Positions 907 to 32,700 are shown, counted from the stretch's first letter. The stretch: 64,000 bases of DNA from a virus (IMGVR_UViG_3300045988_050655), one strand, 5' to 3'. Notes: generated by a model from the letters alone, not told the origin. Made by a program: numbers and translations.

Positions 907-1131
907 TTAATTTCTCATGATATGACACTTAACAACCTTGTTTACTAGATGAGGTCGCGAATTATTGAAATTCTCTATGAACTGGCGTTCCATCTGCTCA
1001 TGGAAGATGGGCTTGGTAGGCTTTGGAATGGTGATGGTAGCTTGGATTTTGCTACCATCACTCAGCGTCATTAAACATCTTTTTTGAATCTGTTCTATTC
1101 CAAACATATTATGTCCTCCTAATATAAGCAT
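907..1131 (-). CDS. hypothetical protein
   Basis: 74-aa ORF. Overlaps the upstream gene end by 13 nt in operon fashion. Confidence 0.5.
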   Translation of the reverse strand: MLILGGHNMFGIEQIQKRCLMTLSDGSKIQATITIPKPTKPIFHEQMERQFIENFNNSRPHLVNKVVKCHIMRN

Positions 1132-1769
1132 CCGTGAAGGTACGGACGAGATTCGTTATACTGCATTTTCAACTTGATGTGTTCAACTAGGTCTATGCCT
1201 TCTATGTGGGCTAGGGCGAAGACCTGAACCAGAATATCCTGCAAGCGCAAGGTGTTCATCCATGCTGGCGAGCAGGAGAAAGGGAAGTAGGTCATGCGAG
1301 TGATGATGAGGTACATGGCATCAGGAAGGGAGTAGGTTCCGTGCTCGAACTCTACCTTGTGATACTCCTCTGTCTTTTTGAGTTCAATATCATTCATCAG
1401 GCATATTATCTTCTGAGAGTTGTAGAATCCCAGAAGCGACATGATGCGGATAGCGATGTCTGCAAACTCAGATTGTACGGTTCCTTCCAAGGATTCCTCG
1501 TAGGCTTGTTCCTCAGATACACCCAGCCACTTGTTGTAGTCTTCAATACTACCATGGCGGTCGTGACGGCTGGCTTGAATGGCTTCGCCCATTTCCGTGA
1601 TGATGAGCATTAACGCTTGGTTGATGTCTAAATCAGACTTATAAAAGCCTTTGGCTTTGGCATTTTCGTATGCCTTGGTCATAAACTGCTTTAGCAGTTG
1701 TTGTGTTAATGGTGTTGCTTCCATATTGTTTTTGAATTTATTGTTTTCTGATAGTGTTTCAATCCACAT
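1119..1769 (-). CDS. MazG-like nucleoside triphosphate pyrophosphohydrolase
   Basis: LMLIITEMGEAIQASR, EFADIAIRIMSL and KMQYNESRPYLHG match the all-alpha NTP-PPase (MazG) metal-binding helices and C-terminal KM.YN..R...HG motif. The start may instead be the ATG at 1724. Confidence 0.65.
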   Translation of the reverse strand: MWIETLSENNKFKNNMEATPLTQQLLKQFMTKAYENAKAKGFYKSDLDINQALMLIITEMGEAIQASRHDRHGSIEDYNKWLGVSEEQAYEESLEGTVQSEFADIAIRIMSLLGFYNSQKIICLMNDIELKKTEEYHKVEFEHGTYSLPDAMYLIITRMTYFPFSCSPAWMNTLRLQDILVQVFALAHIEGIDLVEHIKLKMQYNESRPYLHGCLY

Positions 1770-1776
1770 AGCTAAG

Positions 1777-1989
1777 CTATGACTTGATAGTGAATGCCAT
1801 ATCGTTGAGGGTGCGGCACCAGTTTATCTTGCCTTCTGCGCATAACTCGTTGATGGCATGGTATGGCTGGTGGCATCCTCGGTTGATGATTTCGGCTGTG
1901 AGGACGTGTGGCGGCACGATGTGGGCAGCTTCACGCTCTGCCTGAATCTCAGCGATGATGGCTAGGATTTTTTCTTTCTCTGTCTTCAT
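1777..1989 (-). CDS. hypothetical protein
   Basis: 70-aa ORF in the operon. Confidence 0.45.
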   Translation of the reverse strand: MKTEKEKILAIIAEIQAEREAAHIVPPHVLTAEIINRGCHQPYHAINELCAEGKINWCRTLNDMAFTIKS

Positions 1990-2203
1990 TTGGCGAAGGT
2001 AAGAATGAGACGTGGGTGACTTCGGACTGGAACATTAATTGTTCCCACATTCCGTTTAAGTCTTGCTGATACCACAAGCCATCGTGCATCGTTCCGATGA
2101 TTGGTTTTCCTTTGTACCAGAGTACAATGGTCTTGTGGGTAAAGAGTGCTTTGTGGGCTTTGCTTATTCGCTTGCCTACCTTGATGTAGCCGAATATATC
2201 CAT
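1949..2203 (-). CDS. hypothetical protein
   Basis: 84-aa ORF in the operon. Confidence 0.45.
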   Translation of the reverse strand: MDIFGYIKVGKRISKAHKALFTHKTIVLWYKGKPIIGTMHDGLWYQQDLNGMWEQLMFQSEVTHVSFLPSPNEDRERKNPSHHR

Positions 2204-2205
2204 AA

Positions 2206-2691
2206 CTAGAAGAGTGATAGCTGACCAGTCTTGTCGTGGTAGTGATTACCTGAGGGGAATATCAGTTCCTCGAACATGGCGGTCAGGCAGTTGGTTACTA
2301 TTGAGTTTCCTGCCAGTGCATAGAGTTTGCTCTTGCAGATGATGAGTTGACCAGTCTTCTCCTTGCTCATGAGTTTGTCTATGTCAGCTTCGTGGACTCC
2401 CATCAGTCGGAAACAATCTCTTGGAGTGTACTTTCTGATTTGGATGGAGTATTTCTTTCCGTTGGGAGCGGTATGAATGATTTCTTTACTCATGATTGTT
2501 ACGAATGTCATTGATGATGAATCTATTGTGGTAAGCATGGTAGGGGCGATGCCTTGATATACTTGCTGATTATACAAGTCTAAGACTTGCCCCCCCATAT
2601 CAGGCTTCACCTTCCCTGAAAGGAGCAGGGATTTCATTCTCTTTCCTCCTGTTATCATATCTCTTTGACTATTAAGAATAGTGGGATGCAA
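2206..2691 (-). CDS. C5 cytosine DNA methyltransferase, C-terminal half (TRD plus motifs IX and X)
   Basis: QQVYQGIAPTMLTT (TRD 'PT.T' signature), IRKYTPRDCFRLMGV (motif IX) and YALAGNSIVTNCL (motif X). The track start is TTG. A likelier start is ATG 2658-2656 (or ATG 2637 behind aggaggaaagaga). Confidence 0.8.
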   Translation of the reverse strand: MHPTILNSQRDMITGGKRMKSLLLSGKVKPDMGGQVLDLYNQQVYQGIAPTMLTTIDSSSMTFVTIMSKEIIHTAPNGKKYSIQIRKYTPRDCFRLMGVHEADIDKLMSKEKTGQLIICKSKLYALAGNSIVTNCLTAMFEELIFPSGNHYHDKTGQLSLF

Positions 2692-2816
2692 TTACCTCCG
2701 TGACCCATTGCTGAATTGAGAGTAGGAGAGATTCCCTTGGTGGAATAGACTCTGGTCTGCTGCTCTATTCTGCCTTTGATTTGGAGGTTTGCCAGCTTTA
2801 TAATTTTGTCGCACAT
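2655..2816 (-). CDS. 53-aa mini-ORF encoding an isolated C5-MTase TRD-like cassette
   Basis: MCDKIIKLANLQIKGRIEQQTRVYSTKGISPTLNSAMGHGGNCIPLFLIVKEI. Its TGA (2657-2655) overlaps ATG 2658-2656 of the C-half ORF (ATGA coupling). Confidence 0.35.
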   Translation of the reverse strand: MCDKIIKLANLQIKGRIEQQTRVYSTKGISPTLNSAMGHGGNCIPLFLIVKEI

Positions 2817-3040
2817 TCTTTTATTTTTAAGATAAATGTATTGTGTTCAAAGGAAGCTGTTGTGATGGTTGGTGATATTTTCGTTTTAAATAAACCACCT
2901 TTAAAACTCCCATGTTTGTTTCTGTATATTATCATACTCTTTTTATGATAAGAACTCCACCTTTCGGATAATGAGCGGTTTCTATGAGGTTCATGATGCT
3001 TATCATAGAGAAACTGGCTGTGACTGCTACAGAGCAGCCA
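2798..3040 (-). other. in-frame continuation of the MTase N-half beyond a single TGA, carrying another TRD-like cassette
   Basis: Same frame as 3041-3799. It reads WLLCSSHSQFLYDKHH...GGLFKTKISPTITTASFEHNTFILKIKECATKL, then TAA at 2800-2798. ISPTITT resembles a TRD and KECA..L resembles the start of motif IX. Confidence 0.4.
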
Positions 3041-3799
3041 TCAGCAGTTTTCGGTATTGAAATCTTCGGGGTAGAGTTTTTCGATTGATTCATTGATGTC
3101 TGCTTTACAGAGATACTTTTCTAGGAGTGGCTGAGACATGAAATATTCAGGAGATACATCGTCTTCCAAAATGTCCTCAACCGTAGTCTCTAACTTGATA
3201 GGCGAAGGGAAGTGATACTCTGGGTTCGGCTCGTCTTCTGTGCGTAGGATGGATATTACGAAGATACGCTCACGATTCTGAGGGATTCCGTAATCTTTTG
3301 CATTCAATACTTTGTAGAAAGAAGTGTAGCCGTATGAGTCAAGGTCTCGGATATACTGGAAGAAGTACTTTCTCATTGACTTTGAGAGAAGACCTTTCAC
3401 GTTTTCGAGCATCACATATTTAGGATGCTTGGCTTCCAACATTCTCCTTTCTTGGAAAATAAGAGAAGAACGTGTGCCGCTACCTTCCTCTGCTCCCTTG
3501 CGAAGTCCTGCATTTGAGAAGTCTTGGCAAGGAGAAGACCAACTGATGAAATCGAAGTCGGGAACCTCATTCCAATCAAGAAGGGCGATGTTTCCGTAGT
3601 TCGGGATTTCCCTGCCATGAAGAAGTCTGTAGGCTTGGATGGCAGAAGGTTCTATCTCGGAAAAGCCAACAACCTCGAAGTCGAACTTAGGATGCTTTTC
3701 TTTTAGGTATTTGAAGGCTAGGCTCTGACTGCCATATCCTGCAAAAGCCTCAAAGACTCTGAGGGGATGCTGCTTGTTGTACTTACTGATTTGTATCAT
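3041..3799 (-). CDS. C5 cytosine DNA methyltransferase, N-terminal half (motifs I-VIII)
   Basis: VFEAFAGYGSQ (motif I), SSPCQDFSNAG (IV), VMLENVKGL (VI), PQNRERIFVISI (VIII). The track ORF starts at GTG 3835. ATG 3799 lies 23 nt after the upstream stop. Ends at TGA 3043-3041. Confidence 0.85.
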   Translation of the reverse strand: MIQISKYNKQHPLRVFEAFAGYGSQSLAFKYLKEKHPKFDFEVVGFSEIEPSAIQAYRLLHGREIPNYGNIALLDWNEVPDFDFISWSSPCQDFSNAGLRKGAEEGSGTRSSLIFQERRMLEAKHPKYVMLENVKGLLSKSMRKYFFQYIRDLDSYGYTSFYKVLNAKDYGIPQNRERIFVISILRTEDEPNPEYHFPSPIKLETTVEDILEDDVSPEYFMSQPLLEKYLCKADINESIEKLYPEDFNTENC

Positions 3800-3822
3800 T
3801 GCGGTAAACGGTTTCGTAGATG

Positions 3823-4356
3823 TTACGGATTCCACTGGATACCCAAGCGTTCCAAGGTTCCATTGGCTTGATATATCTCCAACTGCTTTCTACAGAAGCT
3901 CTGAGGGTTCTTTTGGAGAACTTCAATCATTCCGTAGATGCGCTGGCGGAAAGCGTGGTTCTTGTCTTCTTCCGTTATCTGCTGCTCTACCTTGGTCTTG
4001 GCGATGAGTTGGCTGATTTCGGAAGGATTCTCGTTAACGGCTGCTGGCGGTGGTGTGGCTCCGATGAGTTCGTCTTCCCATCCTCGCTGGTTAAGGAAAG
4101 TTTGGAAGTTCTTTCTGTACTGCTTGTCGGGCTGGGAGATTACATAGAGAGGTATGTACTCTATAGCTGCCTTGCGGTCTTTCAGGCTCATGGAGTTCCA
4201 CTTCTTCTCGAGTTTGGATTTGCAGCCCACCTTCTTTTCGTATAGGTTCCATGCTCGCTCAAAGGTATATTCGTCTTTGACTTCCTTGGGAGGAGCAGTT
4301 ACCTTATAGCCATTCTCTTCTAGAAGCTGGATGGCTTGTTTGATTTCATCTGTCAT
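3823..4356 (-). CDS. hypothetical protein (conserved F..AW..Y.KK.G....EKKW... / FLNQRGWEDE pattern)
   Basis: 177-aa ORF. The pattern recalls phage replication-associated helper proteins, but I cannot name a family. Confidence 0.5.
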   Translation of the reverse strand: MTDEIKQAIQLLEENGYKVTAPPKEVKDEYTFERAWNLYEKKVGCKSKLEKKWNSMSLKDRKAAIEYIPLYVISQPDKQYRKNFQTFLNQRGWEDELIGATPPPAAVNENPSEISQLIAKTKVEQQITEEDKNHAFRQRIYGMIEVLQKNPQSFCRKQLEIYQANGTLERLGIQWNP

Positions 4357-4772
4357 AGTTCACCATTTAAATAATTGTCGATTGCTTGGATAAATTCATC
4401 TATAGAGCGGACGATGATGTACTTGCCACCATGTCGTTCTACTTCATACTGGAATACCTTCTGTTCTGGTTCCTGTCTGCCTTTCGGTGTCTTGTTTTCG
4501 ATGCAGAGGAAACCGTACTGGGAGGTGCGCTTCAGGAGCAGCATATCAGATACTCCTGCCTTCATACCTTCCTCTTTCAGCCATGCGGCTTGTCGGGAAG
4601 TTCGCTTGCCGCCATTGGGAACGGCAAAGAAGACTCCTTCAAGGTCAGGATATACCCCACGGATATACCTGACCTCTGCGGCTTGCAAGTTGTGCTCATC
4701 ATAGGATGAACGCTTGCGTATCTTCTTGCCTTCCTGCTGTAGCTTAGCTTTGATTTCAGCGTAGCTTGCCAT
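4353..4772 (-). CDS. VRR-NUC domain nuclease (PD-(D/E)xK)
   Basis: FAVPNGGKRTSRQAAWLKEEGMKAGVSDMLLL...LCIENKTPKGRQEPEQ matches the VRR-NUC D...E.K core. Confidence 0.8.
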   Translation of the reverse strand: MASYAEIKAKLQQEGKKIRKRSSYDEHNLQAAEVRYIRGVYPDLEGVFFAVPNGGKRTSRQAAWLKEEGMKAGVSDMLLLKRTSQYGFLCIENKTPKGRQEPEQKVFQYEVERHGGKYIIVRSIDEFIQAIDNYLNGEL

Positions 4773-5515
4773 TACCAGTCGGTTGAGAAAAGGTCGTTGA
4801 GAGAATCTTTACCCATTAAGCGAATGGCTTCGTCAGCAAGGTCTGCGTTCTTGAAGTAAACGATTCCTTGATTTGTCGTATGGTTAAATGTCACACCATA
4901 AAGTATATCCTTGTAAATATACCAATTTTTACTACCGTCTTTGAAGTTAGGTTTCCAACCACCATTGAGATACTTGGCGATGTTCTGTAACTTGTTGAAG
5001 GCAATAATGCGCTTTGCCTGAGCTTCTGATGTACAGTTGTTTACGTGGCTGTAGCTATTTACCCCTGTTGTTACTGATGAAATAGTGGTATTACCAATAA
5101 AAAATGATTCCTTATTCAAGAATAGCTTTTTGAGAATATCACGATAAGTGATAGGGTTGCCTTCCGCTGCATCAGGAGTCTTCTTCTCGTCTCCTTCAAT
5201 CTTCTTGCGAATCATCGGCTTGCCATCCTCGCTGATGAAGATTTGGAAACCATCAGGAATAGGAATCTCGGTGGCGGAACCATCACCATTGATAATACAA
5301 GAAGACTCTAATAAGTTGTCAGACTGACGGATTCCAGTGTGTGGCTTGTCCTCTGTCTTCTCCTCTGCCTTCTTCATCAAGGCTTCGGTAAACATTCCAG
5401 CACCCTTACCAAGGAGTGCTCCCAGAAGCATCTGGGCGAATGGATTTAACTCTGTGTTGTTGTTGCGCTGACGGCTATTGTGTCTGTTGTTGCGCTTGTC
5501 GTTTCTACGTGTCAT
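4772..5515 (-). CDS. hypothetical protein with basic N-terminus
   Basis: ATG 5515 follows the upstream stop (5517). N-terminus is MTRRNDKRNNRHNSRQRNNN. No recognisable motif. Confidence 0.5.
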   Translation of the reverse strand: MTRRNDKRNNRHNSRQRNNNTELNPFAQMLLGALLGKGAGMFTEALMKKAEEKTEDKPHTGIRQSDNLLESSCIINGDGSATEIPIPDGFQIFISEDGKPMIRKKIEGDEKKTPDAAEGNPITYRDILKKLFLNKESFFIGNTTISSVTTGVNSYSHVNNCTSEAQAKRIIAFNKLQNIAKYLNGGWKPNFKDGSKNWYIYKDILYGVTFNHTTNQGIVYFKNADLADEAIRLMGKDSLNDLFSTDW

Positions 5516-20785: not shown

Positions 20786-23700
20786 ATGCCAGATAATGTA
20801 GATAAGTTATTTGAAATAATGCAGGCGAAAGGTGCTGCTAGTGATAGAGGTAAGTTCCGAAAAGTATTCTTGACTCCTGGCAATAAGGGGTATAAGATAA
20901 GAAAGGATATTTATGATGGACTCAGGGCAGACGGCATTATAGATAGTCCAACTTACGAGGATTTTAGACGAAAGCTAAGACTTGGTGGTACTCCAACAGT
21001 CAATAAGTATCGTCAGCAAATGTTTAACTCTGTTGACCCAAACAAGAGCAGAGCGTCAGAACTTACTAATAGAGCGGTAGGTCAGGCTGTAAGGGCAACC
21101 AACAATGTCCGTAAACCAGTAACCGCAAAGGTTGTGAATCGGAAAGGTAAGCCAATTGGAGAGGAGTTTGCCATTACTCCTGCCAAGACCGTAGAAGACC
21201 TTGATAGGGAGTATGCTCAGGAGACAACAAAGAACTGGGAGAATGAACTGCATGACCAGATGGCTGATGCCGACAAGGATGCAGCAAAGATTAGCGATAT
21301 GTTCAAGTCCTTCATCGGTTCTACTGATGAAGTAGGTAGTGTATGGGGTAACATGACTAGAGGTGGCGGTATCGCTGGTACTCCTCATAGTGTTACTACC
21401 AACAATGGCATCATGGAGAATACAGAAGCTCGACAAATTCTTGCTGCTGGTGATTACAATCGTAAGAGAAGAGAACTCTTGCAGTTGGAGCAGGATTCAA
21501 GAAATGGTGCAATCTTTGACAATCATTCTTTTTTTAGAGGAATGTATGATGCAGCCAAAGATACTGGATTCCTGACTGGCGGTGCATCTGACCTTATCAA
21601 TGCTGGTTCCTTGCTTGCAACCAAGCAGGATTTGGATAATGGTGTCCATACTGAAGCTGGTGATATGCTGATGCAGCAAGCGGTAAAGAATAGTAATGCA
21701 CAGAGTCAGTATGGTGACAATCAGGGATGGATGTACACTGGTGGTGTTATCACTACCAATATGGCTCCTTTTATGGTGCAGATTGGTAGTGCTGGATTTT
21801 CCAAGGGTATGAGTAACGCTATTGGTAAGGTAGTGCAGAGTGCAGCTTCCAAGGTCGCATTGGGTATGATGAATAAGGCAATTGGATTGACAAGTACTCA
21901 TGTCGCAAACATCATAGGTAAAATGACTGGTCTTACTACCAAAGCATTCGGCAAGGCTATCCAGTATGGAATTGTAGGTGCTGCCCAAGCTAATACGGTT
22001 GGTCTTGGAAATGTGGCTAACGATGTGATTAACCGCTATACTGGTCAGGTCTATCAGGATGAGCAGGGCAACTACAAGTTTGGCACATTTGATAGTGATG
22101 GCAATCTTGTGCATGAAGGCGGTGAAGACTTCCTTACTGCTCTCGTAAAGGGTGAGGCGGCTCAGACTATTGAGTTTGCTACTGAGTTGGCTGGCGGTGG
22201 AATTGATGCTGCTGGTACTGCCCTGAAGAACTTCGTTACCAAAGGTGGCAAGAAAATTATCAACAAGTACAACATGGAGAATGTTTCCAAGGTGATTGAC
22301 TTCTTGCTTAATAATAAGGTGGCAAAGAATGCAAGATACTTGAAGGCTGGTGCTGACAGAACTCTTGGCAAGGTTGAAGTGAATAGTATTGTCGGTGAGT
22401 CTCTGGAGGAAGAGTTGGGTATCATCGCCAACACGGTCTTTACTGGTGATAATAAAATCTCAGACTTGTGGGATGAAAAGCAGCAGTCTCAGATATGGGG
22501 CGGCATGCTCTTGTCTATCGGATTGATGAAGGGTGCTGTTGCTCCTTTCCATGCTTATAATGCCAAGCAGTATTATTCCTATAAGCATAAGCTAGACAAG
22601 GCTGATGTGAACTTGTCTCAGTTGCTCGGTAAGGAGAAGTGGGAAGAACTCCGTAATCAGATTGATACTACAACAAACGATGATATGCCTGAAATGGTAA
22701 ACAGAATCAATCGTGATGTTGCTCTTGGTAAGAACAGACAGCCAGTGCGTGAGTATATTCAGAACTTGCTCATCATGCGTGGATATGACATTGGCAACAT
22801 GCTTGCTGCAAAGAAGGCAGTTGAAGACAAGGGTGAAGGTGTCTCTGTGAAGAATATGGAGAAGAATCAGGCATACCAGCAGGGTCGTGATGCTTATGGC
22901 TACGATACTCATGAGATTCAGTTAGACCAAGAAGACAAACAAAAGTCTCTTGCCCAACTTCTCGGTATCTCAGAGCAGCAGTTGGCATCCATGAGTGATG
23001 AGGAACTTGATGCACTCTCTGGTCGTGATGATAATATTGATAGGGCTATCTATGACTACCAGTTATCTACTGCTCGCTATGAAGGTGTGATTGATAATGC
23101 AAGAGACCAGATAGACTTGGAGGTTCAGAGGGCAGCACAAGCGGTTGATATGTACACAGACAAGTCTCGCAATACAATCCGAAATGCTACCATCAAGGCT
23201 ACTGGCGGCTTGGAAGACTATGGTGTTTATATTATTAATGGTAATATCGCTACCCATGAAGATGGTTCCATTGATATTAGTAATAGTGATGATATGATTC
23301 TGTATTATGACCCAACTACCAATACGGTTGAGCATGCTGATGCCATGATGTTTGCTGAACTGGGTAGTGAGGAGAATGCTGATGAAGTGAGAAGTCAGGC
23401 TATGGCTGATGCCAAGGAGAAGGCTATCAAAGAGACTACTGGTATCATTGATGGTGTTGTAGAGGTAGGTACTCAGTTCAAGACCGTTGATGCAGATGGA
23501 ACAGAACATACTTATGAAGTACTCGCTGATAATGGTGATGGTACTGCCATGATTACTATTGATGGCAACATTCCAACTGAACTTGTCAAGGGTGAGAATG
23601 TAAATATTCCAGTCTCGTTTGAAGAGTTGCAGAAGATGAAGGATGAGTCTGACCAGCAGAGATTGCAAGCGGCAAAGGCTCAGCGAGAACAGATGGAGAA

Positions 23701-26700
23701 GGAGCGTGCTGAGCAGCAAAATCAGGAGACAGAAGAGACTCAACCTTCATTTGACTTCAAAAAGATACTCAATGATAATGGTAACGTGGTGCTTGCTGAT
23801 GTACTCGACGAGGATGGCAATACAAGATACCCAAACTCAAAGTTATTTCTCATCCGTGATTCTGGTGCTAAAGCTAAGGTGGTAGAGTTGAAGAGTGATG
23901 GCACTCTTAAATCTCATGCCGTTGATAAGAAAGACGTGAGAACTGCTACTACTATGTCGCTCGATGAATACAAACAAGCTATGGCTGAATCCTCAATGAT
24001 AGAGGATAATAGTGGAGAGAATAGAGGTGAGATAGAGGCTGAAACTTCAATAATAGAGGATGCTGAACCAATAGGAACTGGTGCGTTTGGCAACATCTAT
24101 AATCAGTTTAAGGGCAAAGTTAAGGAGGCTTTCAACTTCCTGATGAGTCATAAGAGTGGAGATTTACTTGGTGTCTTCCATCGTGATGATGTTGGAGACA
24201 TTGACCTTGTATGGGGTAACGAAAAGATGGGTTTGGCTCATATCCTTGGAAAGCATGTAGGTGAAGGAAAAGACTTTGAGACTCCAGATGATGCTATTGA
24301 AATGATTGAGAATGTTATTAATAGCGGTCGTATCTTCCAAGATAATCAGAATCGCTATACATTAATGCTTGATGGTGTAGGTGTAGGTATCAGAAAGAGT
24401 TTCGATGGCGAGAAAAAGAATTGGATTGTGACTGCTGTTGACTTTAATAGAAGTCAAGAAGAAAAAGGAATCGTCACCAATCCCACGTCAACCTCTCATG
24501 GTGTTACTGAGTCAGAGTCTGCTGCTGCGCTCAACGATTCCGATGGCAAAGATATTAATAATTCTGCAAACGACAATGAAAATAATGAAAGTTTAACATT
24601 TGAGGATGGTACTCCTATCCCAGTTGATGAGAATGGAGAGACTGACCTTAGCCAGACTGATGCTGCTCATGCTGCTGAGTGGTATGATAATAACCTCGGT
24701 GAGGATGCTGACGATTGGTTGGATGGAGAAATCAAGAAGGCTAAGAAGGTATTGGAGCAAGCACAGAATAAGAAGGTGACTGGCACTAAGCCTTCTGAGT
24801 TGGTTGCAAGCAAGAAAGAGAAGGAAGCTGCCATTGCTGATGCCCAAGCACATTATGACTCTGCAATCTCTATTCGTGATTCGTTGAAGGAAAGAAGAAT
24901 TGCCAAGGAAGAGAATACTGCTGAGGGTAGGAAGGAACTCATTGAGAAGGAAAGAAGAAAGTTCGCTCGCTTGAAGAGTGCGGTGAAGGATGATGCTGAG
25001 GCGGTTGCTCAACTCTATAAGGAGACGGTTGGTTCGTTGCTGCATCGTCTTTACGATGGTACTGGCATTGACGTGACAGATACGATTCCGCTTACTGCTG
25101 AGGAGTATGTGGCTAGTAACCTCGGTGCTCACTCTCTCAACTATGAGGGAACAGAGACAAGCAAGGGTGTTAAGCAGGAGACTGGTTTGAACAGAGAAGA
25201 CTTTGCTAAGACTCAGTTGCTGGCTGCTGATGGCAAGGGAACTACTATTGATAACCTTGTGCATAGTCTGTGGGAGAATCGTCCATCTAACCTTGATTCG
25301 CTCGGCACACAAGAGATTCGTAACGCTTTGCTCAGCGTAATCACTAGCGGTTTCAAGGCATCGGAAGCAAGAAACTATATAGAGAATCTTCGTATTGCTC
25401 AGGCTGAGAACTTCCTTGAAGAGCAGAAGAAGGCTGCTGACAATGCCGCATTCGCTGAGGAGAATAAGGCTGAATCAGAACAACAGACTGAAACGGCTAC
25501 TGAATCTGAGGAGAAGACTGGGGAAGACAACTCTGATGAGATTAATGATGAGGATAATGAGAAGATAAATGAGCAGACAAATGAGAATATAAATGCTCCT
25601 GAGGTTCCTGAGGATGCAACGGAAGAGAATCCACTTGGCTTACAACTTAGCGAAGATAAGGTTCCGTTTGAAATTGAAGGAGGAAAGAGCGGTGAGACAT
25701 ATAACATAAATGATAATGAAGACAGACAGAGACTTATCAATGACAATAAGGTGGATGATAAGGACATCTTGGATATTGATATGCCTAAACATGTACACAA
25801 GGCTATTAAGGAGTTGTGTAAGAAGATGGGATTGAAGGTTCAGTTCCTTTATATGGGCGCAAGGTCAAATGGTTGGATAGAGAATGGAACCATGTATCTT
25901 GCTCTGGACACAGAGATGGCTACCCAGTTTGTGTTTGGTCACGAAATGACTCATGCAATCAAGCAGAAGAATCCTGAGGCATACAAGGAACTCGTTAAGG
26001 TTGCCATGGCTGTAACGACAAAGAAGAAGTTTGAGGAAGACTTGGCAAAGGTTTACCAAAACTATCATGGTATCTCTGGATATAACAATGTTGATGATTA
26101 CGTTGAGGAGGTTGTTGCTGACAACTTAGGAAAGTTCATTAATAACTTTGACTTGGCACAGAAGTTTTCTCTTCGTCTCAATCATCCTGTATTGGCAACG
26201 ATTCTTCATGCTATACAGAAGATAAAGAGTCTGTTATATGGAGACTTCTACAAGTCTGTAGATGCTTTGGAGCGTATCGTTGAAAAGGCATACGTTGATA
26301 CTGCCAAGGGTGAGGTGACGAACTCTGAGACTGGCGAAGATGTTTCCTTCTCTCTCCGTCAAAAGCCTGAACCTAAGAAGAAGGGCATCGGCTACAAGGT
26401 GTTCGTGTTGAAGGATGGCAAACTCTATCCACCAATGGTAGCGAACCCTGATGGTGCTGCTACTCCAGTAGGTGTATGGCTTGATGCTGATGCGGCTCCT
26501 ATTGCTGGAGAAAGCAAGACTGGCAGACCTCAGGTTAAGCAGGGCGGCAAGGGAACACAAGGCGGTAGCGGTAAGCTAGCCTATAGACCAGGCTGGCATC
26601 TTGGTGTTGTGCCTTATGCTATCCAGTTCAACCGCAAGGATGCTGAGGGAAACAAGACTCTCTTCCCTAAGAACTTTGTCTTCGCTGAGGTGGAGTATGC

Positions 26701-29700
26701 TGCTGATGTTGATTATCAGGAGGAAGCTCGCCAAGAGGGTATCAATCCATCGGGTAAGTATCAGCATTCTCTCGCTGGCTTGAAACATTTGCCTACTGAT
26801 GGCTATTATATGTATCGTACCAACCCGAACCCTGAGACTGACCCTTGGGTGATTACTGGTGCGATGAAGGTGAACCGCATCTTGACCAGAGCAGAGCAAG
26901 CAGAACTTGTGAAGAAGACTGGTCGTGAACCTCAGCAGATTCAGGAGGGCGATATTGTTACTGATGATGTTGTGAACAGCATCAATCAGGAGATAGCTGA
27001 TGCCCCTAAGTTCTCGTTGAAAGACCCATTCAAGATGTCTGACAATGAGAAGAAGGAGCGTGGTGATAGACTTATTAAGGCTCCAGCTATTAATGTGGCT
27101 AGTGGTGTCATTCAGAAGACTGCTGACTTGTCTGCAAGAAAGGCTGCTGAAAAGTGGTGGAATGAGAATGTAGCAAAACCTCTCGTCTTCAATACAGAGG
27201 TTGGTGATGTGGAGATTAATGATAAATCTATCAAGGATTCACTTGCTCATAGATACAGACAACCTAAGTTGGATGCCATTACATCATTACCTGATGGATT
27301 TGGAAATGCGGTGTACCTTGGTACAATGAAGGACTTCACTAGGGATGGTGATGTAAACAATCACTATTTCGCTTATCCTATCAATTATGATGGGCAGAGA
27401 AACTATGTGTTCTGTCGTGCTATGCAGGATGCTAACAAGAATAGATTATATGTGCATGAGGTGTTTGTTGCTGATAAAATAAACGAGGGCAATACCCTTC
27501 AAACCACAGCGTCACAGCCTCATGGAGGTATTGCCCTCTACAAAGAAATTCTTGCGAATGTTCTTTCTGCTGCAAAGATAGACAATTCTTCTGAAACTAC
27601 CAAGGAAAATGGCGAAAAGTTTTCATTGAAGGACGAAAAAACTCTTGCAGGAGTGCATAACATTACTGAGGAGAAGCTGAGAAAGGCTTTGAAACTGGGT
27701 GGCTTTGCCAATCCTTCTTTGGCTGTAATTGATACTAACAAGACTGGTCACGACAACTTTGGAGAGATTTCCTTCATCGCTCCTTCTGCCCTTGTAGATA
27801 AGCGTACTGGCAAGACTGCTGGTACTTGGATAACTGATGCCTATACTCAGCGTTATCCTTCCGTAGAACGAGAAATGAGCGAGAAAGGCAGTCAGAAGTT
27901 TAGAGACTGGGTTGATAGCCTTGAATACCCAAGTGAAGCTAAGGCTGAGATTAAGAGACAGGCAGAGGATGCTCTGAGCAACAATAATGCTCCTGCTTGG
28001 GAATTGATGTACTTGAAGGAAAAGGGTATTGACATTAAGGAGTATGATTCAAGAATTGATTATCGCTGGAAAGAAATTATCAAAGACCATCCAACTGTTG
28101 AGGACATTCTGAATAGTATGAATACTGACCCTGAACTGAATGAAAAGGTTACAGGTCTCGCTAAGCATATCATCGTTGACCCTATACGGGGAAAGATTTC
28201 GTTGGAGGTGAGAAGAAAGATATATGAAGAGACTGGTGTTAAGATGAGTTCTCTCAATCCACAAGTAAGAAAACAGACTAAGGAAATCTTTGAGCGTGAC
28301 TATGCGCCAAGTCTTCTTAACAAGAATGGTACACCAAAGAAATCCGATGTAAAGAAGGTTGTTGAACAGATGGTGAAGGAGCACAACGACACAAAGAAGT
28401 ATGACTTCTATCTGTCTAAGGTGAAGGCTAGTAATTACGTCAACAAGAATGGTCTTTATGATGATTACATCAGATGGCAGGAGAACAAACTGGATGAGTT
28501 CGGAACAAAGAACCGTATCTTCCGTGGCTATACTAAGGATGGTTCCAGAAAGTATGTGCCTGAGACTCTTGAAAATGTTTCAAAGGCTATGAGGGAAGAA
28601 GCAGATGGGCAGACCAATGGAAGCGAATATACCTCGTTTGGTAGCTTTATCGCAAAGTTGGCTAGTCGTGTTGATTCTACAGACGAAATGCGTGCCAACA
28701 AGGATAAGTTGTCTTCTAATAAGGATAAGGAAGAATTTTACGAGAAATGGTCGGACGTATATTATGACCTTGCCAAGTTCTTTTATAATGATGTGTTCTA
28801 TGGCGAGCAGAGACTTCACGATATTGTATTGCAGTCTGACCCTAAGAAGTATGCCAAGAAAGAATATGGCATTACCCTTACTCCTACCTTCATGAAGAAG
28901 CTGGATGCCTTGAAGAATGCAGTACAGACAGAGTTGAAGAGTGCGTACTTTGAGACTAAGTACAACAGACCTCTCCGTCTAAACGAGTTTGCTGCTGCCG
29001 TGGTTCCTGATAACTTGGGCGAAGATGTACGCAAGGGAATAGAGAATGCTGGCTTACCAATGTATGACTACGACCCGAATAAGGAAGGTGACCGCAGCCG
29101 TGCCTTCAATGAAGCTATCAATAGTAGAGACAATATCAAATTCTCTCTGAAATCTATGATGGCGAAACCTGAGGGATGGAAACAAGCCAACAAGAAGGCT
29201 ATACATATTGCAGAAGCTATTGAGCGTGACCCTAAGTTCTCCTTGAAGAACCTTGATGGAACTCTCATTAAGGCTGGAACATATTTTAGCGGTGGCGGTC
29301 TTGTTGAGGAAGGTTTGAAGGGTATCATCGACCCAGTGGTGGCAGTTGAGTATGACGAGAAGATAAGCGGTGTTTATCGCAACAACTTCGGGCAGCACAT
29401 CGTTACTGCTGATGTTCGTGATGTTGACCCAAGAGAGTTGGTTAAGCTGATTGATGGCGAGGTAGAGTACTTCCATGCCAGCCCAGTCTGCAAGAACTAC
29501 TCTCAGGCAAAGAGTAACCATGCTGAGGTGGAACTTGACAAGGAGACTGCTGCTAGTACTGCCGAGTTCATCAATGCTATCAATCCAAAGGTGGTGACAA
29601 TCGAGAATGTGAAGGGATATAAGGATTCGGATGCCATGAAGACTATTACCGATGCTCTGGATGCCAACGGCTACACTTGGGATGCAGATGTGTATAACGC

Positions 29701-32700
29701 TGCTGACTATGGCGGCTACACCAACCGAGAGAGATTGATTGTCCGTGCGGTTCGTGATGGCAAACTCCCTGAAAAGCCAAAGAAGATGGCACGCAAGAGC
29801 GGATGGTATGAAGCTGTGGCTGATATTATCCCGACCCTGACCGAGAAGAAGAATGGTGTGGCTCCTTGGATGGATATTCGATTGAAGGCTGATGGCATTG
29901 ACTGGCGAAACATTGACAAGCCATTATATGTGATGGGTAGTGCCTATGCTGACGGAAAGGTTCCTCATGCCTTCGCTGATGAACTGCTGCCTACACTCCG
30001 AACCAAGAGCGGTGATGTGATTGTGATGCCTGATGGCAAGGTATATCGTGCCATGGGCAGAGTGCTCGCTAGAGTATCAGGAGTGAGCGATGATTACAAG
30101 ATGCCATTCTCTGAGAATCTGAGCCATACCATCATCGGCAACGGAATCCCTACTCAGTTGACCGAGCATGTTATTGCTCCTCTGCTTACTGGCTCCGACC
30201 CTAAGTTTAGCATCCGTACCTATCACGGCACTGGTGCTAGCTTTGACAAGTTCGATTTATCTCATGCCTTGGAAGGCGAGGGAAGTGAGAGCTTCGGTCA
30301 TGGTGTGTATGTTACCAACTCTAGCAAGATTGGACGTGAGTATGCCCAGAGAGCAAAGAATAGAAAGATGGAAGACCTCTATAAAAATATGCGCTACCCT
30401 GATGGGGTGAAGGGCGATATTTTCAAGAGAAGAGTCTTTGGTGAAATGGTGAACGATGTGGCTACTGGCGGTAGTGTGGCAAGTGCCAAGGAGTTTGCCA
30501 AGAAACGTGTCGGTGCTGATGCCAATGATATTCAGCGTACCCTTGAAAACTTGAAGGATAGAGAGAAGGGAACTGAGTATGAACAGAACTTGAAGGATAG
30601 ACTTGCAGAGTATAAAGAAGGCTTGAAGTGGATTGATTCTCTTGATGAAGATTATCTTACCCAAGGGAACGCTAACAGATACGATGTGGATATTCCTGAT
30701 GATAACGGTGAAAATTACCTTGGATGGAATGAGTCTCAAAACTTCCCATTGGAAAAATGGTACAGACTATGGGAAATAACTCATGAAGGGTTTAATGAAA
30801 ACGAGTATTTCAAAGATGGTGGAGCGAGATATGATATAGATAGGATTGAGCGTATCACCCAAATGAAACTTGAATCGCCAGAGAATGGTATGCAGAGACT
30901 TCCTACATTAAAAGGTGAAGCATTGTATCATGCTTTGGAAGACTTCTTCAACCGTGAAAGACCTTCGTATGGTGCAGAATTAGCATCAAGGGCTTTGAGT
31001 GAAATAGGTTTTGTCGGTATCAAGTACCCTGCTGGAATGATTCATGGCGGTGCTGAGGAAGGAGATTACAACTATGTGATATTCGATGAGAACAATGCCA
31101 ATATCGTGGGTAATACCCGATTCTCCTTGCGCTATGACCAGTTTGAACACGACTTGAACCAGTGGAAGAAGGATAATAATCTGCCTAAGGATGCCCAGCG
31201 ACCAACCATCCCACAACGCAACGCTGGCGAGAGTGCTGCTGCATTCTTGAAGAGAGTGGATGAGTACCGCAAGCAGATGGCTCTTTGGAAGACTGCTCCA
31301 ACATACGAGCAGCATCTTCTGAGTGATGATACTGCCCTTGGAGAGTTCAACCGAGAGTTGCAGCGTGGTTCCGTGCTGAAACGTATCGCCTTCCAAGATA
31401 GTATGCTGGCTATCCGCAAGGCTCAGGAAGCTATCATGAAGGAAGTTGGTGTTGACCGCCTGAATATGGCTGAGGATGCCTATACTGCCGAGAACCGGAG
31501 TCACGGCAAGGGAAAGAATGAGTTTGAGGAGTACAATAATGAGTTCTTGCAGCCATTGAGAAAGGCTTATCACCAGATGAAGAAGATACTTGGTGATAGC
31601 TACGATAATGTCCGTATCTACATGATGGCTAAGCATGGCTTGGAGCGTGATGCCCAGATGGCATTCAAGAAGTCACTGGATGCTGACTTTGAGGATGTGG
31701 CTCAGAGAAGTGCGGCATACAGGGCTTACAAGGGCGATATGAACCGTATTACCAATGATAGCGATTTGGAGTTTGGAAGAGTGGATTTCACTACTTGGAG
31801 GCAGAGAGATAATGCTCTCAGAACGAAATATTCTCCTTCCTATATGGACTATCGTTATGATGAGAATGGTATCGCCTACGATTATTCAGGCTTGTCGGCT
31901 CTCTTCGGTGGCTCTGACTTTGAGGAAGCTGCCCACAAACTGGTAAGGGATATTGAGAGTAGTCATGTAGCTGAGGTGCAAGACCTCTGGAATGCTACGA
32001 ATGCGGCTACCAAGAAGATTCTCCGTGATGGCTATAAGGCTGGTATGATGAGCAAAGATACTTATCAGTATGTGCGAGATATGTATAGCCATTATATTCC
32101 TCTCCGTGGCTGGGATGGCACTACTGCCGACCAAGTATGGGACTATATTGGTGGTGGCAAGGGTGCGTTCAATCAGACCTTGAAAACGGCACATGGACGA
32201 ACCTCTATTGCTGATGACCCTATCGCCTACATCGAGAATATGGCAGAAAGTGGAATCCTGCTGAACAACAAGAACTGGGTGAAGCAACACCTGATGCTCT
32301 TGGCTCAGAATCATCCAACTTCCCTGCTGACCCTGAGCAAGGCTTGGTACGTGAAGAGTACGGATGCCAACGGCAACGAGGAGTGGATTCCTGCTACACT
32401 TCAGATTACTTCTCATATGAATAGCAATCAGGTGAAGGCTGCTATTGATGCTTTCGAGCAGAAGATGGAGAATATGGCGCAGACTGGCGATGCTACCCAG
32501 CAGAGAGAAGGCTTGAATATTGCCTATCCTCAGACTCATAGCGAGGAGAGAGAACATGAGGTAAGAGTGATGAAGGATGGCGAGGAGTATATTATCTATG
32601 TGAATGGTGACCCTCAGTTGGCTCAGGCGATGAACAATACCAGAGCACACCGAGTGAGAGAAATTCAGAGCGGCAAACTGGATAGGGCTGCTGCTTGGTT

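Follow-up and report, generated by a model that had tools for sequence, protein, structure and literature searches.

A putative multi-cistronic C5-cytosine DNA methyltransferase with target-recognition cassettes as separate cistrons in a tailed phage

Introduction

The viral DNA stretch IMGVR_UViG_3300045988_050655 (64,000 nucleotides (nt), analysed whole and called the window) carries a C5-cytosine DNA methyltransferase gene in pieces, at 3799–2206 on the minus strand. Motifs I–VIII and motifs IX–X are located on different open reading frames (ORFs), with the split inside the variable region. Is such a locus a broken gene, a gene rejoined during translation, or a working enzyme assembled from several products? 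The locus probably encodes a working multi-cistronic C5-methyltransferase of the multispecific type, with target-recognition domain (TRD) cassettes as separate cistrons. A selected, functional split gene is strongly favoured over decay or artefact. The cistrons are likely translated separately. Action of the small TRD proteins in trans is evenly balanced between yes and no.

Locus organization

Five overlapping cistrons are recognized in the ORF map:

3041–3799, minus strand: cistron A, catalytic N-subunit with motifs I–VIII, 252 amino acids (aa); PF00145 match.
2932–3093, minus strand: cistron T1, TRD module standing alone, 53 aa, KTADGCSVAVTASF...HYPKGGVLIIKRV; ORF list and ratio of nonsynonymous to synonymous polymorphism (pN/pS).
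2798–2935, minus strand: cistron T3, TRD module standing alone, 45 aa, MIIYRNKHGSFKGGLFKTKISPTITTASFEHNTFILKIKE..; ORF list and pN/pS.
2655–2816, minus strand: cistron T4, TRD module of the M.MpeI/M.HhaI type, 53 aa, KIIKLANL..QQTRVYSTKGISPTLNSAMGHGG..PLFLIVKEI; pN/pS and homologues.
2206–2658, minus strand: cistron E-IX-X, C-subunit, 150 aa, with TRD QVLDLYNQQVYQGIAPTMLTTIDSS, motif IX RKYTPRDCFRLMG and motif X AGNSIV; PF00145 match and pN/pS.

Cistron A matches PF00145 (E = 2.6e-52, profile positions 2–227 of 324). The FAGYG, PCQ, ENV and QNRER motifs are readable in its sequence, within a C5-methyltransferase series I–VIII. E-IX-X aligns to PF00145 positions 255–322, with 16.7 bits alone against a cut-off of 22 bits, is scored as carrying motifs IX–X, and shares 41–46% identity with the C-terminal ends of P0024, P0025 and P0037, which are full-length relatives. 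Methyl transfer to cytosine C5 by the locus product is predicted. Both polypeptides are under purifying selection and are predicted to be made, to be needed and to assemble into an active enzyme.

Four TRD-like modules are present in the window. The core G-x-[SA]-x-[TA]-[ILMV] is found in three, and KISPTI in T3. Each module matches in-frame modules of P0024, P0025 or P0037; two further module kinds occur in relatives. T1 (outline MNQSK..KTADGCSVAVTASF..GGVLIIKRV) matches the P0024 module at residues 285–316, T3 resembles the in-frame TRD of P0025 at residues 271–296, and the single-ORF enzyme P0023 includes a T4-type TRD in frame. Among solved structures, M.MpeI and M.HhaI come closest to P0023; the T4-type TRD aligns within the M.MpeI match. 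E is the sole TRD covalently joined to motifs IX–X in the window.

T1 is in the +1 frame relative to A and overlaps the end of A by 53 nt. The T1 stop overlaps the T3 ATG as ATGA (2935–2932), the T4 ATG lies 19 nt ahead of the T3 stop, and the T4 stop overlaps the E ATG as ATGA (2658–2655). The A stop is TGA 3043–3041, after which the same frame is open for 80 further codons, to TAA 2800–2798. All these elements of the original prediction (the TGA, the 80 open codons, the 53-aa and C-terminal ORFs, the ATGA at 2658–2655) were recovered. Its three TRD cassettes are real, though the count is short by T1 (3093–2932), which was overlooked. The frame after the TGA had been read as a TRD followed by the start of motif IX. 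Its last 45 codons are indeed coding and form T3, with an ATG of its own; its first 35 codons (WLLCSSHSQF..) cover T1 in a frame other than its own, with pN/pS 1.58 and stops in relatives. The supposed start of motif IX is instead FILKIKE, the tail of T3, a strand that closes every module.

Distribution and architecture

The comparison set consists of 84 distinct locus sequences from IMG/VR, out of more than 140 matching stretches, with 88–99% protein identity. The split arrangement recurs in all 84, on a complete chromosome of Segatella copri and in lineages further removed, by all appearances far more often than chance would give. A continuous ORF is found in 0 of 84 loci; nowhere among them are all TRDs carried on one polypeptide.

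Mapping of module peptides in the 84 loci gives a fixed order, A-(T1 or allele T1p)-[T2]-[HNH]-[T3]-[T4]-[T5]-E-IX-X, in which presence of modules varies. Fourteen architectures are distinguished; the window type, A-T1-T3-T4-E, is the third commonest. A and the C-half are separated by 163–860 nt, with 27 length classes distinguished. Every stop/start-overlap junction between modules is a −1 frame shift, the upstream stop overlapping the ATG as ATGA (T3, T5, E) or TAATG (T4). Start codons are retained: T1 in 72 of 79 loci, T3 in 15 of 15 (the module occurs in 15 of the 84), T4 in 80 of 82, T5 in 9 of 9, E in 80 of 83. At least 1000 contigs carry a T4 sequence of 53 aa identical to that of the window, and the 90%-identity cluster of E-IX-X has 833 members.

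The prophage copy in S. copri HDE04 (L162 = NZ_CP152346.1, 1447493–1456245) has the layout A, T1, T4-like, E-IX-X. Occurrence of the same layout in a complete chromosome shows that it is not an assembly artefact. This copy carries a nonsense codon in E directly after the poly-G position (PDMGG*).

A single chain devoid of TRD is encoded by P0001 (329 aa, 8 members, 12 contigs), in which an in-frame deletion joins A (..ADINEAIQK) to motif IX SIQIRKYTPRDCF.

In the deeper P0063 clade (N-half 47% identical, 167 members), motifs I–VIII, T1 and T2 lie in one 328-aa ORF ending ..AVLNIKKV, which overlaps a 146-aa ORF with E, IX and X by ATGA. Six cistrons, A, T1, T2, T3, T4 and IX-X, make up the locus in the L173–L176 lineage, which is 58% identical and is represented by 5 or more contigs drawn from different samples; all four TRDs are stand-alone ORFs, each with its own ATG and overlapping stop, and the C-subunit is of 95 aa, without TRD. 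L163 and L038 resemble this layout. In L173–L176, L163 and L038 no TRD is present on the IX-X subunit or in frame with A, and all ORFs are intact. Search of the full library with T4 gave stand-alone homologues of 48–66 aa (47–64% identity, same start and end points), TRD-only arrays of 100–199 aa, and one N-half with several tandem T4-type TRDs and without IX-X.

In single-ORF relatives these modules recur in frame, their order unchanged: P0024 has T1p (residue 285), T4 (333) and T5 (378); P0025 has a T3/T4-like module (271) and E (317). P0023 is a monospecific enzyme with a T4-type TRD. The ancestor was evidently, to judge from these modules, a single-chain multi-TRD enzyme of the Bacillus phage kind, turned into an operon in this phage group.

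Selection on reading frames

Values of pN/pS are pooled pairwise, calculated for each module in all three frames, at pS of 0.16–0.40. Own-frame pN/pS is 0.19 for T1, 0.15 for T3, 0.08 for T4, 0.14 for T5, 0.22 for the TRD of E and 0.07 for IX-X. In the other two frames it is 0.5–4.7 across modules (1.5–1.8 for T1), with stops in nearly all sequences. Neither relaxed selection nor random lesions are seen: breaks are at module boundaries in all loci, and cistrons are intact throughout in 57 of 84. The C-ORF is broken in about 13 loci, in 9 of them at one poly-G tract.

At the T4/E junction, per-codon counts give synonymous-only changes in the T4 frame up to the stop and in the E frame directly after ATG 2658. 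Constraint changes frame exactly at the stop/start overlap.

The A/T1 overlap is of another kind. The A frame has pN/pS 0.20 upstream of the overlap and 0.80 over its last 54 nt, where the T1 frame has 0.33; the last ~9 codons of A, beyond ..KLYP, are not constrained as protein. Per-codon counts over 3073–3041 place constraint in the A frame as far as ..KLYP and in the T1 frame from KISIPKT, with the switch at TAC CCC GAA. The position of the A stop is the same in ~76 of 80 relatives, for the sole reason that this TGA sits within conserved Ala-Asp codons of T1 (GCT GAT). Two models would fit: T1 is initiated independently and both tails are unconstrained, or the ribosome shifts by +1 at TAC CCC GAA and makes an A-T1 fusion. 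A CCT codon in place of CCC at the putative shift site, in 8 of 33 variants, counts against the shift. In-frame genomic A-T1 fusions exist at several positions (P0010, P0013, P0016–P0018), so an A-T1 fusion is viable.

Own-frame selection, retained ATGs, stop/start overlaps, the frame switch at T4/E and intact ORFs exclude, as far as sequence can, a decaying pseudogene, an assembly artefact and silent DNA. The original prediction had judged the disruptions non-random, which is correct: the breaks fall at the same module boundaries, with selection in each frame. Comparison of orthologues in related phages, which it had proposed as a check, gives a layout kept under selection and not randomly degraded. 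Its naturally split enzyme of the M.AquI kind stands, the split being conserved and under purifying selection also at 47–58% N-half identity. Of its former multispecific enzyme with tandem TRDs, the ancestry is borne out by in-frame modules and single-ORF relatives; the word former does not hold, the cassettes being still selected as separate ORFs.

Junction repeats and poly-G tracts

Three short elements of the window accompany the cistrons:

2925–2955, minus strand: junction repeat copy 1, at the T1 end, GTTCTTATCATAAAAAGAGTA followed by TGATAA.
2648–2680, minus strand: junction repeat copy 2, at the T4 end, TTCTTAATAGTCAAAGAGATA followed by TGATAA.
2590–2596, minus strand: G7 homopolymer (C7 on the plus strand) within cistron E, codons PDMGGQ, candidate on/off contingency tract.

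The junction repeat is of ~25 nt, with the consensus GTNTTAATCATCAARARNNTA across relatives, then TGA or TAATG. It encodes the last strand of each module, ..VLIIKxx, and includes the next ATG. The T1-end repeat and the T4/E junction are identical at 22 of 29 nt. Within the window the copies match at only ~75%, with a gap, and a generic repeat finder did not detect them; the repeat is visible only through comparison of junctions between loci.

A gene for a 123-aa homing endonuclease (NUMOD4 and HNH_3) forms a cassette of the TRD array, placed after T1 and ahead of T4 or T2, in 4 of 84 IMG/VR loci and in L161, a contig of a metagenome-assembled genome (MAG) (relatives L061, L120, L129, L104, L161). 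It terminates with the same junction repeat, ..PNEVLIIKRL then TAATG. The junction repeat may be the target of this cassette. A second homing-endonuclease gene (NUMOD4, HNH_3, NUMOD1; 204 aa) is located ~1.5 kb downstream of the methylase array in L170–L172, at 4193–4807; these three have a frameshift in cistron E close to the poly-G position.

G/C homopolymers are strongly avoided in the window. The G7 tract is its only G/C run of 6 or more in 64 kb, against ~11 expected from composition, and is in frame (ON). Among relatives that share this allele, the run is G6 (3), G7 (23, one of these carrying an extra GT ahead of it) or G8 (6). Tract length bears no relation to the divergence of the flanks and differs between loci with 0–3 mismatches in 600 flanking nt, including one pair with 0 mismatches, G7 versus G8. 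Relatives with the T1p allele have a second G tract, between T1p and T2, and T2 is without an ATG of its own. Lengths of this tract fall in near-equal thirds: G7 (n = 8, KGGY-stop), G8 (n = 10, KGGVLIIKKL..), G9 (n = 9, T1p-T2 fusion). A simple repeat inside an ORF and frame-changing length variation among close relatives, the marks of a phase-variable locus, are both present. The tracts have the look of a contingency-tract signature, and G7 looks like an on/off switch.

Proposed mechanism

One transcript would carry all five overlapping cistrons. T3, T4 and E would be translated by termination-reinitiation coupling, which fits the overlaps, the conserved ATGs, the A-rich leaders provided by ..IIKK codons and the exact position of the constraint switch. 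The pieces would assemble non-covalently, at minimum A with E-IX-X as a heterodimer like M.AquI. This minimum is the conservative reading, given the natural two-polypeptide C5-methyltransferases M.AquI and M.EcoHK31I and the mutual complementation of M.SssI fragments split in the variable region (PMC3404938; PMC2836561). Free TRD peptides would probably supply further sequence specificities in trans, as suggested by strong selection on the TRDs and by lineages without TRD on either catalytic piece. Several targets on phage DNA would be methylated, giving protection from host restriction systems, a role proposed from the function of phage multispecific methylases; the set of cassettes would be adjusted to the host strain. 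The ~25-nt boundary repeat would permit gain, loss and exchange of cassettes by recombination, free of frame constraint, and slippage of G7 in cistron E would turn the whole enzyme on or off.

A fuller form of this mechanism is proposed tentatively. TRD mini-proteins of 45–66 aa would be interchangeable specificity subunits docking in trans on a core of A and IX-X, in the manner of HsdS. The repertoire would change as cassettes are gained, lost or swapped at the junction repeat, possibly cut by the HNH enzyme. Poly-G tracts would add on/off and fusion switches.

Several points weigh against a multi-cistronic enzyme with free TRD peptides. The T1 ATG is 50 nt upstream of the A stop, and simple termination-reinitiation therefore cannot account for translation of T1. 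Everything said on the protein complex is inferred. To our knowledge, there is no precedent of a free 45–53 aa TRD peptide working in a C5-methyltransferase. Covalent linkage appears tolerated and may even be preferred, since in-frame A-T1 or A-T4 fusions exist in the genomes of some relatives (P0002, P0010, P0013, P0018). Differences in G-tract length could partly be assembly errors. Because protein similarity in a single frame was used to locate the modules, pN/pS is biased slightly to low values; the bias is limited because T4, E and IX-X are found in nearly all loci. The AlphaFold2 model of the single-ORF P0023 has a good catalytic domain and a confidence score (predicted local distance difference test, pLDDT) below 50 across the TRD; structure thus supports neither side and is silent on module boundaries.

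Alternative readings

The best surviving alternative, itself unlikely, is a monospecific heterodimer of A and E-IX-X only, as in M.AquI. T1, T3 and T4 would then be silent or reserve pseudo-TRDs kept for recombination, or would have an unrelated role as small proteins. It agrees with the single TRD attached to IX-X in the window, with the two-cistron form as the conserved core of the P0063 clade, and with the frequent cassette turnover indicated by junction repeats and 14 architectures. Inactive TRDs are also said to occur in the multispecific enzymes of Bacillus phages. Silent DNA, however, would not give pN/pS of 0.08–0.19 with ATGs and stops conserved over the pS range sampled. Recombination between junction repeats never puts a cassette in frame; the deletion product in L038 is again −1. 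The lineages with no TRD on IX-X or in frame with A nevertheless keep their ORFs intact.

Recoding is less probable still. It requires a −1 shift at each junction, with a +1 shift from A into T1 or read-through of the TGA, and would yield one long multi-TRD polypeptide, possibly with shorter products. The conceptual fusion is collinear with P0024, P0025 and P0037, the −1 offset is the same at every TRD-module junction, and P0018 is a genomic variant with exactly the A-T1 fusion predicted by the constraint switch at ..KLYP to KISIPKT. The uniform offset is, however, an automatic result of the ATGA/TAATG overlaps. No X_XXY_YYZ heptamer is present at any junction, by inspection of junction sequences by eye. 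At T4/E, constraint running to the stop and restarting at the ATG leaves no room for an upstream shift, and the P-site codon ATA could not re-pair at −1. Conserved ATGs, the unconstrained read-through frame with its stops in relatives, CCT at the putative +1 site and use of TGA as a stop elsewhere in the window also count against recoding. The recoding-dependent expression offered in the original prediction is thus not upheld; no programmed frameshift or read-through is indicated for the locus overall, the A/T1 overlap alone being ambiguous.

A plain pseudogene or assembly artefact, that is, a multispecific methylase broken by random frameshifts or homopolymer errors, has only minority lesions to recommend it (the HDE04 nonsense codon in E, G6/G8 frameshifts, an early stop in L051) and is so improbable as to be negligible, in view of breaks that recur at the same module boundaries in 84 distinct sequences, gathered in many different studies, and in the complete chromosome of an isolate, purifying selection in each frame, a layout conserved at 47–58% identity, and no junction that is a homopolymer.

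Comparison with known systems

Multispecific C5-methyltransferases of Bacillus phages SPR, phi3T, rho11s and H2 (Trautner and co-workers) reportedly carry tandem, self-contained TRDs of ~40–50 aa between motifs VIII and IX, with one specificity presumed for each. The present locus is likewise phage-encoded, with tandem TRDs between VIII and IX, and the in-frame relatives P0024, P0025, P0037 and P0130 have that very design. Those enzymes are single polypeptides, whereas here every TRD has its own start and stop. By analogy, methylation of several unrelated target sequences by the window enzyme is predicted.

M.AquI of Agmenellum quadruplicatum is a two-polypeptide C5-methyltransferase split within the variable region, both halves carrying part of that region (PMC3404938). 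The plan, with I–VIII and IX–X on separate polypeptides, is shared by A (252 aa) and E-IX-X (150 aa) of the window and by the two-cistron form of P0063; the likeness considered is one of plan. Different here are five cistrons (four to seven in relatives), whole TRDs on free peptides of 45–53 aa, a phage location, presence/absence polymorphism of cassettes and a homopolymer tract. M.EcoHK31I is a natural heterodimer with two polypeptides from overlapping frames of one DNA stretch (PMC2836561). Overlapping frames are common to both; in M.EcoHK31I the beta chain (motif IX) is nested in the alpha gene, the TRD is on alpha, and there is no cassette array.

The nrdA gene of Aeromonas phage Aeh1 is split by the homing endonuclease gene mobE, and its pieces are separately translated and reassemble (PMC3045599). 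It resembles the present locus as a phage enzyme gene in pieces, and the NUMOD4 and HNH_3 cassette of some relatives adds to the likeness. Here the split is without endonuclease gene in the window and in most relatives, and there are many pieces, not two.

In Type I systems, hsdM and hsdS genes overlap and are translationally coupled (PMC3510504). The analogy is of function: specificity resides on a separate, exchangeable polypeptide whose gene overlaps and is coupled to the methylase gene. HsdS belongs to an unrelated protein family, serves N6-adenine methylation and has TRDs of ~150 aa. Phase-variable methyltransferases (phasevarions) have homopolymer or repeat tracts in mod genes (PMC4417156, PMC6902483) and share with this locus a simple repeat within an ORF whose length differs among near-identical relatives and sets the reading frame. 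Here the enzyme is a phage C5 enzyme, and switching is a candidate property proposed from length variation between loci.

Split C5-methyltransferases and multispecific phage methyltransferases are known kinds. A conserved, cassette-built, multi-cistronic methylase with stand-alone TRD genes would be the new element. C5-methyltransferases are treated as single-chain enzymes with a built-in recognition domain, two natural heterodimers aside; here a large natural family of separate, selected recognition mini-genes is met, and it is plentiful in phages of a bacterium dominant in the human gut. In current annotations the system is invisible, since both gene callers and annotation pipelines report its ORFs either as hypothetical proteins or as truncated methylases. 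If the modules work in trans, C5-methyltransferases would gain a modular specificity-subunit logic, the ability of phages to keep up with the very diverse restriction systems of Segatella would be explained, and a natural toolkit for split or programmable cytosine methylases would be at hand. Artificially split M.HhaI, M.SssI and M.EcoHK31I are already in use for targeted methylation (PMC3404938, PMC2836561, PMC3439449).

Phage context and expression signals

The window phage is tailed and has genes for the portal, the terminase, recombination and replication. The locus has close relatives in the complete S. copri HDE04 chromosome and in Prevotella/Segatella MAGs, and on these grounds the predicted host is S. 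copri or a near relative and the phage is predicted to be temperate. GenBank phages gave no match to the locus in a near-identity search; in a protein-level search the best matches were at most 46% identical.

No terminator-like site was found on the coding strand within the locus, which points to a single transcription unit. A scan for sigma-70 promoters gave matches no more numerous than in shuffled sequence. Shine-Dalgarno motifs are scarce in the window (before 9 of 61 ORFs, Bacteroidota-like). The AGGAGG before ATG 2637 was considered as one and rejected, given this rarity and the constraint that already begins at ATG 2658; it is more likely merely part of the codons for TGGKR. A group I or II intron or an intein between the halves was likewise rejected: the Rfam scan of 1900–4100 for introns and other RNAs gave sub-threshold matches only (best 18 bits against a gathering threshold of 40), the intervening DNA encodes TRDs, and an intein occurs in no homologue but P0022.

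Other observations

Two further methylase variants were encountered. In P0021 (322 aa) a deletion fuses the methylase N-half to a downstream MazG-like pyrophosphatase gene (PHROG 9236; window 1119–1769). In P0022 (629 aa), a related methylase N-half, a Hint/intein (PF14890, PF13403) interrupts catalytic motif IV itself, between SSPC and CQDFS. At 20786–34711 on the plus strand the window has one ORF of 4641 aa, very large for a phage of ~65 kb.

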